Positions 47,971-64,000 are shown, numbered from the stretch's first letter. The stretch: DNA of 64,000 bases from a bacterium (GCA_027487145.1 JAIYEC010000070.1:4477-68476), one strand, 5' to 3'. Numbers and translations are program-made. The notes: generated by a model from the letters alone, not told the origin.

Positions 47971-48045
47971 CTTTTAGAGCTAGCACGAGAAGGCTACAAA
48001 AATGAACCTCAATTGGGGTTCATTTTTGTAGCCTCTGGTATGCAA

Positions 48046-48963
48046 TTAAACAAGATTTAGAATCTTCGCAACCAGATATTCTGTATCAGAAAAAAATTCA
48101 GATATTTTATTATTCTGGTCTTTATAACCATTTTGCGGGAAAAAACCAAAGTGAATTAACCTATTGCGAATTTTTTCTATCTTTTCTGCGTTTTCTTCTT
48201 CCTTACCATCAAGAAAGTATTCATTTCTGACAAATCTATATTTTTGCTCCACGCTCATTTTTGATATCTCTTTATTATTCATCAATAAAGAATGGTGTAG
48301 TGAAAAAATATGTTCCCAAATTGACCAAGATAGAATAAAAGCGGATTCTGTACACTGGCGTTTTTGCGCCTGAGCAAAAATTAAAAGAAATGCGCCTTTA
48401 CTATATTTCTTTTGCCATACCTCATCCTTAATAGTGGAACATACTTTATTTACCGCGATTTCTAGCCCCTGATCAAATCTGAGCCATTCAAATGCACTAA
48501 GCCCATTTATCTCGACCTCAGAAATGATTTCTCGTGTTTGATTATTTATAGCTTTTCCTACAGGTAGAACAAATCGACCAAAATTACCCCTATGTTGCCT
48601 TGGATCTTCAATAATCTGTATTCTACTTTCAGCGTCACGCCATGTCTTTGCAATAATATTTCGCCCAGTAAGGAGTGATAGAACTAGTAGTATATCTAAA
48701 AATTCTCTAGGTTTTTGGGAACCTACTTCTATACTATTCCACGGCAAAATTGCAACTTTTTGTCTTGAGGGCAACAACGCCAAGGCAGTCACCCGATGAC
48801 TGCCTTGATTGACCTCAAATGAAGTGCTGTTGTACGAGTGCGACAATTCTTTTAATATTTTTTTGTAATCAGGAGCCTGCTTAAAACAATACTCACCTAC
48901 ATTCAGCTCTAAAACATTATCTGGAAACTCAAGGTTGTATATTTCAATCTGAACCCTATCCAT
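48046..48963 (-). CDS. hypothetical protein (island cargo, 305 aa)
   Basis: AT-rich ORF with no recognisable motif. It is the last gene of a three-gene operon. Confidence 0.5.
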   Translation of the reverse strand: MDRVQIEIYNLEFPDNVLELNVGEYCFKQAPDYKKILKELSHSYNSTSFEVNQGSHRVTALALLPSRQKVAILPWNSIEVGSQKPREFLDILLVLSLLTGRNIIAKTWRDAESRIQIIEDPRQHRGNFGRFVLPVGKAINNQTREIISEVEINGLSAFEWLRFDQGLEIAVNKVCSTIKDEVWQKKYSKGAFLLIFAQAQKRQCTESAFILSWSIWEHIFSLHHSLLMNNKEISKMSVEQKYRFVRNEYFLDGKEEENAEKIEKIRNRLIHFGFFPQNGYKDQNNKISEFFSDTEYLVAKILNLV

Positions 48964-49282
48964 TTCCTAATTTTAAGTTGTGTATTGAGAAAAGTAAAAA
49001 TAACGCAGTAACAAAATCAATTATTATCCAAACATCACGAGTAAGGAATACAGGAATAAAAGGGTTAAACAATACTGCTATCACACCAAAGAGCCATACC
49101 CAACCCTCTTGCTTATCTTTGTACGCAAGGTAGGCAACGTATGTAGTCGAAGCAAATACAACGAAACGAAGAATTGTAAAAAATCCATATTGCCAACCAT
49201 CAATCAAAGCTAATAAAAGAAAAACTGATGCAATAAACAGTGCGGTATTTTTCTTTTTATTTTGACCAAAGACCATGTACAA
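48956..49282 (-). CDS. hypothetical small membrane protein (island cargo, 3 TM)
   Basis: 108 aa. It overlaps the downstream gene by 8 nt. Confidence 0.45.
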   Translation of the reverse strand: MYMVFGQNKKKNTALFIASVFLLLALIDGWQYGFFTILRFVVFASTTYVAYLAYKDKQEGWVWLFGVIAVLFNPFIPVFLTRDVWIIIDFVTALFLLFSIHNLKLGNG

Positions 49283-49288
49283 AATAAG

Positions 49289-50476
49289 TTAATTCTTTGG
49301 TGTCAGAAATCTGAAACTTACTCCAGCGGCTTTATAAACATGATCTAGACCTTCTGGTGTAAAGTCGCCTCCAAACAATCTCATTGAACCATCATTATCC
49401 ATACACACTTGCATAAACATAAAATTGTCTTCAATTTTATACATAAAATGCCAAGTACCGACAAGTTTATTCCTATGTTCTTTTAAGAACACTAATATTT
49501 GCGACTGAGTGAAACAGAGATTGTTTAAATCTTTATCTATAGATTTAAACATCTTGTATATCGTTGAATCATTAATAAGATAATGTACTTGTGCTTCAGC
49601 AATGTTTGTGTTTTTTGAAACAAAGTCTGATTTATTTATATCTTCTTCTTCAAAAAAGATAATTTTAAAACTTTCTTTTGAGTTTGCAATATTTATTTTT
49701 CCGTCTGTAGGTGGTATTTGAAAAACAGTATCTGTTTTTATAAGTACATTATTGGGTATATTTTTGATGTCATTGTCTTTTTCCCAAATGATTTTTGATT
49801 CAGTAGAAATATCAGAACTATTAAGTTCTTTAATTTTATACTCTTCATCTTCTTGTTTGCCATAACTTTTTTGAACCTCCTTTGAAATTTTTTCAAAATC
49901 AACATCTTCCTCAATATCTGGTAGATATCCGAAATCGTATTCAATTTTTTCATCTGAACAATCCTGGGAGCCTGTGCCTGCAAGATAATCTTCTTTTGAA
50001 ATTTCTTTAGAGCCGAATAGCTTCTCAAATTTCTCTCGGATAAGAATACCTCCTGTTGGATCTGATTTTCCTATCGACTCTATTTTGGCAATATACTTTT
50101 CATAGCTTGGATAACCATTAAATAGCCAAAAACCAAGTTCTTGAATATTTTGAACCATGTCTGGTGCATTCTGATTAGCTAAATCAATATATAAGTAATA
50201 TGCAGCCTTAATGTATTTTTTAGGGTATGGCAATAATGACATTGGTACTAATGTCATTAATGGATGTAGGGGTAGATGCTCGTTAAATAATTTCAACTGG
50301 AATGAATTAAAATCTTTAAACACCTTCTCTGCGAGGGCATAGTTTGGTTCTTTATATTCTGGGACTGATTCTTTAATCAGATTATAAGCTTTTATTAAAT
50401 CTGAATTATCATACTGATTCACTACCTCCCTATGTGAAATTTTATTTTTAAATAAGCCAAACATATTTTTTATCAT
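49289..50476 (-). CDS. hypothetical protein (island cargo, 395 aa)
   Basis: Very AT-rich with no recognisable motif. It is the first gene of the operon. Confidence 0.5.
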   Translation of the reverse strand: MIKNMFGLFKNKISHREVVNQYDNSDLIKAYNLIKESVPEYKEPNYALAEKVFKDFNSFQLKLFNEHLPLHPLMTLVPMSLLPYPKKYIKAAYYLYIDLANQNAPDMVQNIQELGFWLFNGYPSYEKYIAKIESIGKSDPTGGILIREKFEKLFGSKEISKEDYLAGTGSQDCSDEKIEYDFGYLPDIEEDVDFEKISKEVQKSYGKQEDEEYKIKELNSSDISTESKIIWEKDNDIKNIPNNVLIKTDTVFQIPPTDGKINIANSKESFKIIFFEEEDINKSDFVSKNTNIAEAQVHYLINDSTIYKMFKSIDKDLNNLCFTQSQILVFLKEHRNKLVGTWHFMYKIEDNFMFMQVCMDNDGSMRLFGGDFTPEGLDHVYKAAGVSFRFLTPKN

Positions 50477-55543: not shown

Positions 55544-55610
55544 GTTAAGTATGCTGATGTGACATATCCCTCCTATGTGAACATCTCAAGCAAAACAAAA
55601 CCCTTGCTTC

Positions 55611-55765
55611 ACTCAACCATTCAAGACACAGCTCTTCCAATTGGTTCCACCCGAGGGTTGGCAGCCGCCCTGGAGCAAAGTCCCCCTTTCGGGGGACTTT
55701 TGCGTAAGGGCGCCTAGGGAAGCAGACTGTTTTGCTTCCGTCCGAGAATCGAAAGCCGGAGCGAT
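55611..55765. repeat. copy 2 of the conserved hairpin-rich non-coding element (contiguous form)
   Basis: See copy 1. It lies between the stop of the 747-aa surface protein gene and the start of arsR. Confidence 0.55.
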
Positions 55766-55899
55766 ATTTATGAGCGAGCAGGTGAGAAATGGGATGGGAC
55801 CCGTTTCCCAAACTTTTTTCACTCTACGACCTCGCGTAAACGAAAAAACACCAGGCTATTTGTCCGGTGTTTTTACATTTCTTTATATAAGTATAGTGA

Positions 55900-58143
55900 C
55901 TACCACCACAATCCTGGCAAACCAGCGGCTTTCATCTGAGCCCGGGTAATTGCTCCGAAGTAACCAGAAGCTGGGACAATACCGTATTTTAGTTGGTATT
56001 CAATCAGCGCTTGTTCGGTGTAATTGATGAAATCACCAGTCGCAGTTACTCGAGCGAGTTCTCGGGCTTTTGGTCCAGTGTTATGATTAATCAATAACAC
56101 CTGCAAGGCTTGAACGTCTTCCCCGCTTAGGCCACGGTACAAATCACGAACAATCAGACCAGTCACATCCACCACCGGTTGAACCGCTTGATCAAGAATC
56201 GTAATCACCACAGCCGGTAGCTCGATTCCCGCCATACGCGCTGCTTCAAAGACAGCCCTGTTTTGATTAATAAATTCTCGGAGTGAAGCAGGTACTGTTA
56301 TATTCTGACTTATCTCAGTATCCGCTTTGCTATCTGTTGGATTAGTTGTTCGACGAGTACCTCCTCCGCCACTGCGTCGAGGCTCATCTTCATCGACAGA
56401 GGTAAAGTTCTGCCAACGGAAAAATGGATAGCCTCCATTTTCGCTTGGGTTAATACCCCAGATAGTAGTGAAGTTCCAGCCGGCACCAGTGTAGGTACTA
56501 CTCATTTTCATTCCTGGGGTTGCAATACCACTTCCAGCTCCAGAAGCGGATTGATTACTAGCTACACTATCCCAAAATGACGCAGTGATAGTATTTTCAT
56601 CTGACTCTCCAATCAGACCACCTACAAACGTATTTCCTGTCACTAAACCGCGCGCGTATACATTTATATATTGTGAATTTGATACTTGTCCACTAAAGCC
56701 ACCAACATAATTAGTTCCGGTTACCGTCCCTGCCGCGTAGCCATCAGTAATGGTCATGCCTCCGCTACTGCCAAGGAACCCTCCGACCTGGTCGCTACCT
56801 GTTACATCTCCAGTGGCAAACACTTGACTCATGGTCGAGCCAGGTCCTTCACAGCCATCATTACCAGTAAAACCTCCTGCACTGGCACCTGTTGCAGTCA
56901 CATCACCAGTTGCGTAAGCACGTACGATTTCTGCACCACACCCACTGCTCCCGAACATACCGCCGACAGATTCAGTACCTGTCACATCGCCGGTTGCAAA
57001 GCTATTCAAGACATAACCACTTGAAAACCGTCCAGCAAAGCCTCCAATTGAAAATTCCGTTCCACTCACATCACCAGTAGCTGAACTAGTTGCAACACTA
57101 GCATCACTAGCTGAGCCAATGAGTCCTCCGACTTCATTGAGACCCTCTATCACTCCGGAAGCAGCAGCGTAACTGACACTACTTTCAGTCAGACTCCCTA
57201 CCAACCCTGCGACTCTACGATTTCCGGTTACGTCACTGGTACTGGTAGCATACGAAACAGTGGCATTATTCTCGACGGTACCGGCAATTCCACCAATCCG
57301 ATCTCCACGCTTCCCGTTATCATTTGTGCCATCAATTTCACCGGTTGAAACAACTCGAGTCAAAGAACCCCGCTCCATTCGTCCTACGATACCACCAATA
57401 TCTTCACCTCCATCAATAAATGCTGTCGATGTTGCATAAGTAATGGTTGTATCAAGAGCACTTCCGACGACACCACCAATAATGATTCCGCTTCCTTTAA
57501 CAGCACCACCAACAACAACATTTGAAATTGTAGTTCCGTTAGTATAGCCAGCGACTCCTCCGCCATATTCCCCCCAACGGGTCCAGATACAAGCGGCTGG
57601 CTGACATACATCTGGGGTACTCATGACATCAATTCCAAGATATGTAACACCAACATTTACTTGAACATTTTCAATGATACCTCCTACTGCATATCCAACT
57701 AAACCACCAACATATCGATACCCCTTGATTGCTACATTGGTGAGACGGATATTCTCCAGTGTCGCGTCTTCTGTATACCCAAACAATCCAACATGCTGTT
57801 CGTCATCAACTCCTTCTCCTGGCAAATCGTCTGCTCGTTCAATAAATAAGTCTCGAATTTCAAAGTTCTGCCCATCAAGTGAACCAATAAATTTTGCTGT
57901 GCTGGTACCAACTGGAGTAAAGCCCTTTCCTCCGTTCCACAAAGTGGTAACACCACATTCGATATGATTCTCTAGTCGATAGTGGGCATCAAGATCATCA
58001 GCCATTTCTCGTAATCCATCACAATCTGTAATTTGGTATGGATCATTTATTGTTCCAGCCCCAGCTCCCGTAAACGCTTCAGCGGCAGTTCCATAAGTTG
58101 CAAAAATAAAAACACTGATTGCAACAAGTTTAGGTAAATTCAT
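55900..58143 (-). CDS. large secreted surface protein with Gly-rich (GLUG-like) repeats and a C-terminal putative peptidoglycan-binding domain
   Basis: Signal peptide, then many repeats of ..VGG[LFI][IAV]G.., and a C-terminal segment like PG_binding_1 (LSGEDVQALQVLLINHN..YTEQALIEYQLKYGI). Confidence 0.5.
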   Translation of the reverse strand: MNLPKLVAISVFIFATYGTAAEAFTGAGAGTINDPYQITDCDGLREMADDLDAHYRLENHIECGVTTLWNGGKGFTPVGTSTAKFIGSLDGQNFEIRDLFIERADDLPGEGVDDEQHVGLFGYTEDATLENIRLTNVAIKGYRYVGGLVGYAVGGIIENVQVNVGVTYLGIDVMSTPDVCQPAACIWTRWGEYGGGVAGYTNGTTISNVVVGGAVKGSGIIIGGVVGSALDTTITYATSTAFIDGGEDIGGIVGRMERGSLTRVVSTGEIDGTNDNGKRGDRIGGIAGTVENNATVSYATSTSDVTGNRRVAGLVGSLTESSVSYAAASGVIEGLNEVGGLIGSASDASVATSSATGDVSGTEFSIGGFAGRFSSGYVLNSFATGDVTGTESVGGMFGSSGCGAEIVRAYATGDVTATGASAGGFTGNDGCEGPGSTMSQVFATGDVTGSDQVGGFLGSSGGMTITDGYAAGTVTGTNYVGGFSGQVSNSQYINVYARGLVTGNTFVGGLIGESDENTITASFWDSVASNQSASGAGSGIATPGMKMSSTYTGAGWNFTTIWGINPSENGGYPFFRWQNFTSVDEDEPRRSGGGGTRRTTNPTDSKADTEISQNITVPASLREFINQNRAVFEAARMAGIELPAVVITILDQAVQPVVDVTGLIVRDLYRGLSGEDVQALQVLLINHNTGPKARELARVTATGDFINYTEQALIEYQLKYGIVPASGYFGAITRAQMKAAGLPGLWW

Positions 58144-58279: not shown

Positions 58280-58912
58280 ATGTATTACTATATTTTAGGA
58301 GCGGTAGTGGTAGGAGTATTGTTATGGACCATTGGGAGCTACCTAGTTATCCGAAATATTGAAGAACCAAAATATACAGTATTGGAAAAACGAGATGGGT
58401 ATGAAATCAGACAGTATGATCCATACATCCTGGCCCAAACGACTGTGACTGGAAGTTATGATGAAGCTACTAATAAAGGCTTTCGGATTATTGCTGATTA
58501 CATTTTTGGGAACAACACCAAAAAAGAAAGTATTGCCATGACTACACCAGTCTTAGAAACCAAGCCGGTATCAGAAAAAATTTCTATGACGACACCAGTG
58601 CTTGAGACCTCTCTTGAAAGTAATCAGCGTGTTATCGCATTTGTCTTACCTTCACAGTACACGCTTGAAACACTCCCCACCCCAAACAACCAAGCTGTAA
58701 CCTTCACGGAAGTCCCTGGTGAAAAAGTGGCAGCACTCACCTTTACCTGGTACGCAAGCGAAGAGAGAATGGAGACTAAGAAGGCTCTCTTGCAAGAACA
58801 CCTTACTCGTGACAACTTCACAGCAGCAGGAGAACCAAAAACAGCTCGTTACAATCCCCCACTTTCTATGCCGCTCATGCTTCGAAATGAAGTGTTGATT
58901 CCGATTGAATAA
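58280..58912 (+). CDS. SOUL/HBP heme-binding-family protein with an N-terminal TM anchor
   Basis: EEPKYTVLEKRDGYEIRQY...KGFRIIADYIFGNN...MTTPV...RNEVLIPI. It contains a tandem duplication of 16 aa (IAMTTPVLETK.. / ISMTTPVLETS..). Confidence 0.6.
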   Translation: MYYYILGAVVVGVLLWTIGSYLVIRNIEEPKYTVLEKRDGYEIRQYDPYILAQTTVTGSYDEATNKGFRIIADYIFGNNTKKESIAMTTPVLETKPVSEKISMTTPVLETSLESNQRVIAFVLPSQYTLETLPTPNNQAVTFTEVPGEKVAALTFTWYASEERMETKKALLQEHLTRDNFTAAGEPKTARYNPPLSMPLMLRNEVLIPIE

Positions 58913-58915
58913 TCT

Positions 58916-59395
58916 TTAGCGGATATATCCATTCGCCTTTAAGTAGGTGGTCGTGAGGATGGGTTTGTCATGAAGATTTTTTGCTTTTATAACCTTCCCC
59001 ACAAGTAGACTGTGATCTCCGCTCGTCTCAATCAGCTGCTCGACGTGTAGCGTCATAATTCCTGCGGCTGTCTTTAAATAAGAGAGATTACCTTCTTCAC
59101 CTAGTTCAAACCGTTTTTTAAGACGGCTGATTTTATTAATTTTAGTTCCAGAGAGTTGTCCGCATATGCGTACAACGGGAGCCAAGTCTTCCCCTAAGAG
59201 TTGTAAGAGGACAGTCTCTCCAACCGCAACATTTTTGAGTGTCTGTGTGTCTCTATAGACTGCGACCATCATGAGTTTTGGGTCAAGCGAAACCGCTGTT
59301 ACATACGTACAGATATTCATGTTAGGTACTCCATCTGATGACACTGTCGACAAACTCCATACAGCGTCGTCCGGGCGATTCCATAGCTTTCTCAT
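58916..59395 (-). CDS. flavin reductase-like (FMN-binding split-barrel) domain protein
   Basis: The pattern VWSLSTVSSDGVPNMNICTYVTAVSLDPKLMMVAV resembles the flavin-reductase-like domain. Confidence 0.5.
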   Translation of the reverse strand: MRKLWNRPDDAVWSLSTVSSDGVPNMNICTYVTAVSLDPKLMMVAVYRDTQTLKNVAVGETVLLQLLGEDLAPVVRICGQLSGTKINKISRLKKRFELGEEGNLSYLKTAAGIMTLHVEQLIETSGDHSLLVGKVIKAKNLHDKPILTTTYLKANGYIR

Positions 59396-59431
59396 AGGAC
59401 TATTCTACGCGACAAAATTTTAGGTACAATA

Positions 59432-59680
59432 GTGTCTATGAAAGCACTGACTGAGATTGATATTGAACAGATCATTTTGATGGCCTGGGGAGATACTATT
59501 CCGTTTGAAGCCATCAAGCGTGAATACGGGCTAACCGAGAATCAGGTGCGTGTTCTTATGCGAAAGCATCAATCTGAAAAAACGTATCGCCGTTGGCGCG
59601 AACGGGTTGAAAAGCGCAGTGGCTTCAGTAGTAAGCACGAGCAACTGAGTACAAAAACCTCAACAAGGCAAAAATATTAA
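59432..59680 (+). CDS. DUF2805 (TIGR03643-like) small protein
   Basis: 82 aa with IILMAWGDTIPFEAIKREYGLTENQVRVLMRK..YRRWRERV. Confidence 0.5.
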   Translation: MSMKALTEIDIEQIILMAWGDTIPFEAIKREYGLTENQVRVLMRKHQSEKTYRRWRERVEKRSGFSSKHEQLSTKTSTRQKY

Positions 59681-60759
59681 TCTCCCTGACAAGCCTGCCA
59701 GAATTTGAAGAAGCTTTGATGGTAGCCAGTCACCTGCGGGAATAATTCTGCTACAGGATCTTTGTATCCAGATACATGTTCAGTGGTTGGATGTGCTTTT
59801 GAATAGACCGTGGCATTTTCAATGCCAGGAATCGTCTCAGCATTTCCGACAAATATCTTAGCGGTCGGGACGTGCATTCTAAGCAGAGCTATCATATGCT
59901 CAAGAACGAGCGGCGATACCGGGAAACGGTCAAAAAGTCTTGGCTCGATGATAAAAATTCTCTCTCCAGCTTCATCTTTTCGCCACAATGGATCAATACT
60001 CCACGGGTGGTAGAGAAGTACTGTTTTACCTGACACATCTGCAATGACATCAGCTGTTGGATACGTCATTTCAAAATTAAACGGGCTGTGTGTCAGGAGC
60101 GCCAGAGGAACATCTCCCACTCCAATCAGTTCAATTGGCATATCCAAATAGGTACCCTGCTGATGTACGTCACTACAGTTGTTTATGAGTGACTGATTTG
60201 CAACATACTGTTTTTGAACCGACGTACCAGCCACCCACTGCCACGACAACGTGTTTGAAGCCAGATCTCCGTCAATCAAATGGTAATAGAGAAATCGACT
60301 CATGTTATACCAGTGTGCCTTCCCCACATTACACGCCAGCATAGCAGTCCACATTCGCGCATGGTTGTGCATGTACCCTGTCTCCATTAATTCCTTAAGG
60401 GTATTGTCTATGACAGTGATTCCTGTAGAAGCAGTAGCAATAGCGGTGGTTACTTCTGTATGATGCCAGTCATCCCGGGAAAACCTCAAGTCAGAAAAAA
60501 TCTCCTGCTGTTTTGTTGTGAACACCTTTTGGAAATACTCTCGCCAGGCGAGTTCTTGGATGAACTTTTCAGCATTTGCTTGAGAGTACTTTTGGAGAAT
60601 CCGGTCTCTGACGGCCGGCAAGCTAATCACCCCTCGCGTAATGTATGGCGACAATCTTGAAACCGCACCGGTGAGATGATTACGGGTTTTGGCATACGTT
60701 ACTGGATTTATAGTGTCGATATATTCAAGAATTTCTTGATAAGAAAGGTGTGGGTTCAT
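59677..60759 (-). CDS. cryptochrome/photolyase-family-related protein; FAD-binding domain is N-terminal
   Basis: TRN..GAVSRLSPYITRGVIS, ELAWREYF, and TGITVIDNTLKELMETGYMHNHARMW...HLIDGDLASNTLSWQWVAG all lie in the first 190 aa or so. The C-terminal 170 aa are more weakly alpha/beta-like. Confidence 0.6.
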   Translation of the reverse strand: MNPHLSYQEILEYIDTINPVTYAKTRNHLTGAVSRLSPYITRGVISLPAVRDRILQKYSQANAEKFIQELAWREYFQKVFTTKQQEIFSDLRFSRDDWHHTEVTTAIATASTGITVIDNTLKELMETGYMHNHARMWTAMLACNVGKAHWYNMSRFLYYHLIDGDLASNTLSWQWVAGTSVQKQYVANQSLINNCSDVHQQGTYLDMPIELIGVGDVPLALLTHSPFNFEMTYPTADVIADVSGKTVLLYHPWSIDPLWRKDEAGERIFIIEPRLFDRFPVSPLVLEHMIALLRMHVPTAKIFVGNAETIPGIENATVYSKAHPTTEHVSGYKDPVAELFPQVTGYHQSFFKFWQACQGD

Positions 60760-60760
60760 T

Positions 60761-61198
60761 TTAGAGTAACGGTAAACTTTTTACTTTTTGTAAAACATCT
60801 TTTGAGTTTTGGTGACTTAAGAGTGTCAGAGCATCATCAAATGTACACCAGCGAATCTCTTTAATTTCGTGTGGTTGTGAAATATGAGTATCTGAGGATT
60901 TACACACCCCAACAAAATACTCGACTGTTTTCTCAATCCGTACTCCTTCGTGCGTGAACGAATAAGAGACAGCTATCGGAGTTTTGTCAATCAGTTCAAC
61001 TTCACTCACACCTGTTTCCTCCTGTAATTCACGCAAAGCTGCCTTAATTGGTGTCTCCCCTTTTTCAGCGTGACCTTTGGGAAAAATCCAAAAATCATCG
61101 CCTCGGTATGAGATCTGATGCACGACAAGCACCCGCCATGCGGTGCCATTATTATAAAGCGGAACGATACCATATGAGATATCTTGTTTGGTTTCCAT
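60761..61198 (-). CDS. NUDIX hydrolase
   Basis: Nudix box GHAEKGETPIKAALRELQEETGV. Confidence 0.8.
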   Translation of the reverse strand: METKQDISYGIVPLYNNGTAWRVLVVHQISYRGDDFWIFPKGHAEKGETPIKAALRELQEETGVSEVELIDKTPIAVSYSFTHEGVRIEKTVEYFVGVCKSSDTHISQPHEIKEIRWCTFDDALTLLSHQNSKDVLQKVKSLPLL

Positions 61199-63516: not shown

Positions 63517-64000
63517 TTAGTCTTTCTTGTCTTCTTCTGGTGTCTCGGCAGTTTCAGCAACTACGTCTTCGACAATATCTGGAGTAACTTCTTCAGCTGG
63601 AGTTTCTGCAGCTGCGGCCTCTGCAGCCTTGGCTTCTTCAGCAGCTACGCGAGTCGCTTCTGCTTCTTCGGCAGCCTTAGCTGCTTCTTCTGCCTTCTTA
63701 GCGGCTTCAGCTTCTTTTTGTGCCATTTCAATTCCTGACTCGGTTGAGATAGAAACGAGACTCATGCGTCGCATTTGTCGCTTAACCTCCCTCGCTACCT
63801 TCTCACGAATGTAGTAGAGTTTTGCTCGACGAACCTTCGCTCGCTTCACAATTTCAATCTTATCAATCATTGGCGAGTAGAGCGGGTAAATCTTTTCGAT
63901 TCCAATCCCTCCTGATACCTTACGGACAGTGAAGGTGGCTCCTGGTTCATCACCATGCTTGCGAGCAAGCACAATTCCTTCAAAAATCTGGATACGAGTC
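63517..64000 (-). CDS. rplS: 50S ribosomal protein L19 with an Ala/Glu-rich C-terminal extension; N-terminus lies beyond the window end
   Basis: [45 protein letters not shown] matches the L19 core. The ORF is open to nt 64000. Confidence 0.8.

Follow-up and report, generated by a model that had tools for sequence, protein, structure and literature searches.

Organization of the Locus

A window of 64,000 nucleotides of bacterial DNA was analyzed. Within it, a photolyase-like gene, a gene for a small DUF2805 protein and a small flavin-reductase-like gene form a tightly packed trio at positions 58916-60759, and their open reading frames lie exactly where the original prediction, made from the sequence alone, had put this three-gene cluster. 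The trio and the two genes next to it are as follows:

58280..58912, plus strand, SOUL haem-binding-family gene (Pfam, E = 1.8e-47)
58916..59395, minus strand, small flavin-reductase-like gene, 159 aa (PF01613, Flavin_Reduct; Pfam, E = 1.8e-15)
59432..59680, plus strand, DUF2805/TIGR03643 small protein, 82 aa, GTG start (Pfam, E = 7e-20; NCBIfam)
59677..60759, minus strand, photolyase-like gene, 360 aa, complete ORF with ATG at 60759 and stop codon at 59677-59679
60761..61198, minus strand, NUDIX hydrolase gene abutting the photolyase ATG (Pfam)

The photolyase and DUF2805 genes are convergent, with a 4-nt overlap at their 3' ends, a layout that is also present in the CPR (Patescibacteria) relatives L084 and L087. 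On the other side, the junction sequence places the NUDIX stop codon (60761-60763) 1 nt from the photolyase ATG. Judged by its profile scores, the 59432-59680 product is a bona fide TIGR03643/DUF2805 protein, with 79.3 bits against the TIGR03643 cutoff of 66.55 in NCBIfam and 71.5 bits against a cutoff of 22.5 in Pfam. The flavin-reductase-like protein reached 57.8 bits with PF01613 (gathering cutoff 27), its NCBIfam equivalog scores were all far under cutoff, and its nearest relative in the PDB was PheA2 (1rz0), a weak match with E = 5e-4.

The Photolyase Has an Inverted Domain Order

According to the original prediction, the FAD-binding motifs stand early in the protein and the domain order of photolyases is swapped. 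Both points were borne out by domain mapping. In Pfam, FAD_binding_7 (PF03441) matched residues 66-205 (E = 6e-24; 85 bits, cutoff 27) with profile positions 1-146 of 203, and the antenna domain PF00875 had no match in the 360-aa protein. The DASH and class I models of NCBIfam matched residues 9-204 with their C-terminal halves only (model positions ~219-423), and in photolyases of the PDB it was chain residues ~196-400 that paired with residues 21-205. The catalytic domain lacks the canonical last ~60 residues, corresponding to Pfam profile positions 147-203. The protein is thus divided into three parts:

60145..60759, minus strand, catalytic all-α FAD-binding domain, residues 1-205 (matched over ~9-205; HMM and PDB alignments)
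60040..60144, minus strand, linker between the two domains, residues ~206-240, chiefly coil (alignment; DSSP on the AF2 model)
59680..60039, minus strand, C-terminal Z-domain, residues ~241-360 (AF2 model)

In the full-length AlphaFold2 (AF2) model, which was built with a 52-sequence alignment, the catalytic domain and the Z-domain are predicted to pack with confidence into a single compact body (pLDDT 94.6, pTM 0.91). The model is all-helical up to about residue 195 and continues through the largely coil linker, whose sequence is the least conserved of the whole protein in the homologue alignment, into a C-terminal α/β domain.

Among 5.8 billion proteins searched, more than 120 proved to be homologues with 50-90% identity; nearly all of them are 358-370 aa long, and all have the same MNP... 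N-terminus. The inverted order, with the FAD domain first and the α/β domain last, is common to these more than 120 orthologues. With 77 bits, the protein stayed far under the cutoffs of the canonical family models (317 for DASH, 506 for PRK10674 and 885 for the 8-HDF type); these scores, the missing PF00875 match and the coverage of only 146 of the 203 PF03441 positions led us to reject a canonical class I/III CPD photolyase or a DASH cryptochrome. An absent antenna domain and scores below cutoff might also be expected if the gene were what truncation or a frameshift had left of a canonical photolyase, whether as a pseudogene or through an assembly artefact. However, there is no space upstream of the start codon and the 360-aa ORF is intact, the orthologues are of equal length with invariant catalytic residues, and the AF2 model predicts both domains with high confidence. 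These observations rule out a remnant or an assembly artefact, an explanation to which we give next to no chance, and the 1-nt junction with the NUDIX gene and the constant length of the orthologues also rule out a missed upstream exon or frameshift, which would have restored the normal domain order.

Active Site and Tryptophan Chain

Residue equivalences were taken from an HMM alignment to E. coli Phr, and conservation was determined by column in 132 sequences. The equivalences (window protein = E. coli Phr) are:

CPD-binding residues: E69=E274, W72=W277, N132=N341, M136=M345, W175=W384
FAD-binding residues: R135=R344, D163=D372, N169=N378
Further equivalence: D165=D374
Trp chain: W173=W382, W150=W359, W98=W306

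By this alignment, none of the residues with which the E. coli enzyme binds FAD or the cyclobutane dimer is missing. Since the mapped active-site residues are invariant or nearly so in the 132 sequences, their conservation speaks for a CPD photolyase and against a protein that only signals.

The Trp chain differs between the clades. W98 paired with the distal Trp (W306 of E. coli Phr) in three independent alignments and occurs in 56 of the 60 CPR-clade sequences; none of the 72 from the sister clade has it, most of them carrying Val at this position. According to both papers on the class to which we assign the protein below, conservation across the class extends to only two of the three triad Trp (PMC7736829; PMC8476157). 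The full triad of one clade against the two-Trp chain of the other is a natural contrast that is useful for the question of how many Trp are needed for photoactivation.

Assignment to the NewPHL/SPL Class

Photolyases of this topology have been described twice. Emmerich et al. (2020, NAR 48:12845; PMC7736829) reported NewPHL, represented by DsNewPHL (A8LJA9) and MmNewPHL (M7YZC8), which binds FAD as its sole cofactor and repairs CPDs in single-stranded DNA only. The same class was described independently as SPL (short photolyase-like) by Xu et al. (2021, MBE 38:4505; PMC8476157), who distinguished the subgroups A, C, Be, Ba and Ac. A four-Cys FeS cluster is found in C and Ac, and in subgroup Ba (Bacteroidetes; representative CmSPL of Cyclobacterium marinum) the SPL gene is in an operon with an FeS-BCP gene (PMC8476157). 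All three characterized members, from D. shibae, M. mesophilicum and R. fascians, repair CPDs (PMC7736829; PMC8476157).

The closest genome matches of the window protein were Parcubacteria/Paceibacterota MAGs with 62-70% identity, and those in Saccharibacteria and Nomurabacteria had ~50%. After the CPR, the next were Bacteroidota including Cyclobacteriaceae, with 38-45% identity over the full length. In the comparison with subgroup A, for which a Ruegeria TM1040 megaplasmid protein (410 aa, subgroup-A-type) was used as a stand-in, identity was 35% (E = 2e-35) over the catalytic domain only; the best canonical photolyase reached an E-value of ~1e-16. In a neighbor-joining (NJ) tree, the protein fell among CPR sequences, whose clade was the sister of a Bacteroidota-type clade, and Ruegeria branched outside both. 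No FeS-cluster motif was found in the translation, which has only three Cys (C143, C195 and C357) and no CxxC. On this cysteine content, membership in the FeS-containing subgroups C and Ac was rejected, and the protein fits A, Ba and Be. Because of these identities, the NJ tree and the absent FeS motif, we assign the protein to NewPHL/SPL, as part of a CPR clade whose sister is the Bacteroidota subgroup Ba, with a probability of roughly 85%.

The original prediction was in its overall reading essentially right, and the protein it described belongs to a class known since 2020-21. The inverted architecture is already in the literature of those years, and the main claim is therefore not new. What goes beyond both class papers is the occurrence in CPR, the third Trp in the CPR clade and the recurrent neighbor genes.

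Fold and Origin of the Z-Domain

To our knowledge, there is no solved structure of the inverted-topology photolyase class. In the AF2 model the Z-domain has β-strands at residues 246-250, 266-271, 301-304, 317-321 and 332-334 and helices at 283-296 and, at the terminus, 350-357. Modelled alone, it retained a pLDDT of 92.4, and the models indicate that it is a real folded domain. Its terminal-helix motif, G345-Y346..S349-F350-F351..W354, is conserved; S349-F350-F351 was found in 129-131 of the 132 sequences, and W354 and W259 are conserved as well. In NewPHL, a conserved Trp and a 'GFF' motif have been reported for this domain (PMC7736829). The x-F-F-K end, which reads QSFFKFW here and AGFFKV in Ruegeria, presumably corresponds to 'GFF', an equivalence by position only. 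An HMM of the Z-domain of this clade did not detect the C-terminus of the Ruegeria subgroup-A-type protein.

It had been suggested that the C-terminal part weakly resembles the α/β antenna domain of photolyases. The α/β fold was confirmed by the confident AF2 model, and sequence-level tests for a likeness to the antenna domain were negative: Pfam gave no real match for the Z-domain, and hhalign against alignments of class I photolyases, FeS-BCP, SDR and thioesterase proteins yielded noise only, with a probability of at most 0.2% for class I and FeS-BCP. Likewise, Foldseek found nothing in the PDB at E < 0.01. With the Z-domain as query, the Synechocystis DASH cryptochrome (1np7) ranked tenth and a class III photolyase fourteenth. 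From this rank list, which carries no aligned ranges, we infer that the part aligned to the Z-domain is the antenna domain, because the query is α/β and the catalytic domain of photolyases is all-α.

An exhaustive profile search with the Z-domain among 1.84 billion representatives returned 261 proteins. In the best 150 of these 261, the match was C-terminal in a protein of ~355-460 aa or lay in a gene fragment, and the N-terminus of a canonical photolyase was never matched. One match, in a protein of 2448 aa, was discarded as a tandem-repeat false positive.

On balance, the analysis leans towards the Z-domain being a degenerate antenna domain that was relocated, which is the circular permutation of the original prediction and the published 'domain swapping' scenario. 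That a catalytic core, either truncated or ancestrally of one domain, instead acquired an unrelated α/β domain is an explanation to which we give somewhat less than an even chance; it corresponds to the published scenario of an 'ancestral minimal photolyase'. The choice has consequences for the history of the family. If the Z-domain is a degenerate antenna, NewPHL/SPL would have arisen by permutation of a two-domain photolyase and would not be the ancestor of the family, the position favored for it by both class papers (PMC7736829; PMC8476157). A high-confidence model of the previously unmodellable Z-domain bears on this question.

Gene Neighborhood and Candidate Helper Proteins

The neighborhood of the photolyase was examined in 80 species-representative loci, within ~6 kb of the gene and with many loci cut by contig ends. 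The following genes recurred:

FeS-BCP (DPRP): 55/80 loci, mostly upstream on the same strand
DUF2805: 35/80 loci, ~27 of the 35 directly upstream
DUF2256 (45-aa zinc ribbon): 28/80 loci
Small flavin-reductase-like gene: 17/80 loci, 7 of the 17 directly upstream and overlapping the photolyase start
Class I-type photolyase: 9/80 loci

At least one of them is present in 73 of the 80 loci. By these counts, DUF2805 and the small flavin-reductase-like gene are conserved neighbors of the photolyase. Other recurrent neighbors are an SDR gene, a 4HBT thioesterase gene and a second Flavin_Reduct protein that also carries DUF2452.

In close CPR relatives, the gene order is L19, inositol phosphatase, NUDIX, DPRP (divergent), DUF2256, NewPHL, DUF2805 (convergent) and Flavin_Reduct, followed after further genes by SOUL. 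In the relatives, the intergenic region between DPRP and NewPHL measures 158 bp. Identities between the window and syntenic CPR relatives are 94% for L19, 79% for the flavin-reductase-like protein, 76% for SOUL and 60% for NUDIX, the second and third of these values referring to the copies in L084. The SOUL gene is syntenic only in the close CPR relatives L084 and L085 and had no match in the 80 species loci. The FeS-BCP (DPRP) and DUF2256 genes are missing from the window locus, tblastn found no DPRP remnant, and the junction of NUDIX and photolyase is the very site at which syntenic relatives carry the two; they have been lost from the locus in this genome. Because of this loss, which leaves the NUDIX gene directly abutting, the photolyase is probably co-transcribed with it. 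No second photolyase was found in the 64-kb window, where the search returned only the NewPHL gene itself.

Outside this class, on plasmids, a canonical-length photolyase stands beside a flavin reductase in Vibrio, with a TIGR03643 gene 1.4 kb away, and TIGR03643 is paired with DUF2256 in Acinetobacter. Two other plasmids that were examined have no photolyase nearby, and the flavin-reductase-like protein of the window had no plasmid homologue at E < 1e-8. Literature searches yielded no paper on TIGR03643, nothing on what DUF2805 or DUF2256 do, and no description of a partnership between photolyase and flavin reductase. Three uncharacterized small families (DUF2805, DUF2256 and the small flavin-reductase-like proteins) are tied to photolyases by their genomic position.

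The tight linkage of DUF2805, which overlaps the photolyase by 4 nt in CPR and lies directly upstream in Bacteroidota, and its faint Sigma70_r4- and SarA-like (HTH) similarity in Pfam would suit a cryptochrome-like photoreceptor, in which light-driven reduction of the flavin signals via DUF2805 and controls the transcription of photoprotection genes. Xu et al. raise SPLs as possible bacterial cryptochromes (PMC8476157), and the complete Trp triad of the CPR clade would favor efficient photoreduction. However, this HTH similarity reaches none of the thresholds, and the PDB yielded no solved homologue of DUF2805. Moreover, neither the five CPD-contacting residues nor the N5-proximal Asn vary in the 132 sequences, whereas the 'NewCRY' group, which has been proposed to signal, has lost them (PMC7736829), and the CPD repair by all three characterized class members likewise speaks against a photoreceptor. 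We consider such a role quite improbable and retain the assignment as a CPD photolyase.

A broader proposal is that the short photolyase is the core of a multi-protein photorepair module with the flavin-reductase-like, DUF2805 and DUF2256 proteins and that, separately, the Z-domain is a degenerate antenna; taken together, this appears unlikely to us. Within such a module, one might speculate that the flavin-reductase-like protein keeps or restores the FADH- of the photolyase without light, and dark reduction of this kind would, if true, offset the shortened Trp chain of most members. Equally speculatively, DUF2805 (HTH-like) and DUF2256 (zinc-ribbon) could be DNA-binding or regulatory accessory subunits.

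Proposed Mechanism and Implications

A mechanism for the window photolyase can be proposed from what is known of the characterized class members (D. shibae, M. mesophilicum and R. fascians) and of photolyase chemistry in general. FAD would be the only chromophore bound. The cyclobutane pyrimidine dimer (CPD) would be held by E69, W72, N132, M136 and W175, and blue or near-UV light would excite FADH-, from which an electron would pass to the dimer and split it. The target would be single-stranded or unwound DNA and not the duplex, because the canonical interdomain phosphate-binding loop is missing. Oxidized FAD would be re-reduced by light through W173, W150 and W98, in this order. Based on a published covariation analysis, the Z-domain may close off the flavin pocket in place of the antenna domain. 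For the CPR/Ba members, the CPD substrate, the specificity for single-stranded DNA and the cofactor content are extrapolated from the characterized enzymes.

Ultra-small CPR bacteria from sunlit waters commonly carry this class, which may be among the very few DNA-repair functions that they keep. Our results do not overturn the current understanding of these enzymes, and their novelty is modest; the remaining interest lies in the clade-specific third Trp, the Z-domain model, the accessory genes and the disappearance of the (6-4) photolyase partner from this locus.

Comparison with Known Photolyases

Compared with class I photolyases (E. coli Phr, 1DNP; S. elongatus, 1TEZ; T. thermophilus, 1IQR) and with DASH proteins, the domain order is inverted here, and PF00875, the interdomain phosphate-binding loop and the last ~60 residues of the catalytic domain are all missing.

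With NewPHL and subgroup A, the window photolyase shares the N-terminal catalytic domain, the lack of an antenna domain, a C-terminal Z-domain that is ordered and ~125-150 aa long, the conserved CPD- and FAD-binding residues and, by position, the C-terminal x-F-F-K motif. It differs in its host, since neither class paper lists CPR, and in its length of 360 aa against ~405-410. Furthermore, its Z-domain has diverged past HMM detection and reads SFF in place of the reported GFF, and it has the distal triad Trp (W98), whereas the papers describe two conserved Trp.

With subgroup Ba, the protein has in common the full-length homology, with 40-45% identity, to Bacteroidota proteins including Cyclobacteriaceae and the lack of a four-Cys FeS motif, and its relatives are linked to an FeS-BCP (6-4) photolyase, as is the case in C. 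marinum (PMC8476157). In contrast to Ba, the CPR sequences form a clade of their own, with W98, W137 and W253 where the Bacteroidota have V, Y and Y, and the FeS-BCP partner gene is missing from the window locus.

Neighborhood of the short photolyase gene

Only 1 nt lies between the stop codon of the NUDIX gene and the ATG of the short photolyase gene in the window (60757-60763). This junction was compared with the following regions of three syntenic CPR relatives:

L084, 4373-6001
L085, 4369-6020
L087, 4384-6008

In all three relatives, NUDIX and the short photolyase are separated by two extra genes, the first a divergently oriented gene for an FeS-BCP (DPRP) (6-4) photolyase of ~489 aa and the second a DUF2256 zinc-ribbon ORF of 45 aa. 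Both are missing from the junction in the window, and a tblastn search across the whole 64 kb detected no remnant of either. The JGI contig L084 is syntenic with the window and shares with it the following gene:

63517-63972, minus strand, ribosomal protein L19, whose C-terminal tail is long and rich in Ala and Glu

This protein is 94% identical to the L084 copy, which suggests that the uncultured CPR organism of L084 is a close relative of the window organism, perhaps at the genus level.

The DUF2256 ORF was examined in L084:

L084 5867-6004, DUF2256 ORF (Pfam), directly preceding the short photolyase

This small ORF is absent from the gene list of the contig as called. ORFs located directly 5' of the short photolyase matched DUF2256 with Pfam E-values of 3e-13 to 7e-23, and they were also found in L085, L087, L002-L006 and L008. 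Of the 80 species loci, many of which are cut by contig ends, 28 have such an ORF. In L084 the DUF2256 stop codon and the photolyase ATG share bases (ATGA), an overlap suggesting that the two genes are translationally coupled.

Two plasmids show linkages outside the short-photolyase class. On a Vibrio pelagius plasmid (L089, 346-4249), a canonical-length photolyase adjoins a flavin reductase of 229 aa, and a TIGR03643 gene is found 1.4 kb away. TIGR03643 and DUF2256 are neighbors on an Acinetobacter plasmid (L088, 4004-4380), a pairing that recurs in Acinetobacter plasmids. Judging from these linkages, the association of small DUF proteins seems to extend to photolyases in general.

Other features of the window

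55545-55899, intergenic stretch of 355 nt between an ArsR-like regulator gene and the gene of a 747-aa repeat protein
55900-58143, minus strand, the 747-aa secreted-looking protein

The intergenic stretch contains several long GC-rich hairpins, with an MFE z-score of about -4 on both strands; a search against Rfam gave no match even with the threshold relaxed to E <= 1. The stretch may encode a structured RNA of no classified family, or its hairpins may serve as terminators or regulatory elements. Degenerate G-G-(L/F/I)-(V/A)-G repeats are numerous in the 747-aa protein, and a segment at its C-terminus resembles a peptidoglycan-binding domain. Elsewhere (48001-50000), the GC content falls locally to 0.33, compared with ~0.45 in the rest of the window; this stretch may be horizontally acquired or an AT-rich island.

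Variation within the photolyase family

Some homologues, such as P0168 (445 aa) and P0217 (460 aa), possess an additional N-terminal extension of ~80-90 residues, in which a G-S-R-x-(I/V)-x-H-x-L-(R/T) stretch is conserved. This extension is unrelated to the antenna domain.

60466-60468, codon of W98 of the short photolyase, which corresponds to E. coli W306, the distal member of the photoreduction Trp triad

An equivalent Trp is present in 56 of 60 CPR-clade sequences but in none of the 72 Bacteroidota-type sequences. The two papers that describe the class (PMC7736829, PMC8476157) each report only two conserved Trp residues.
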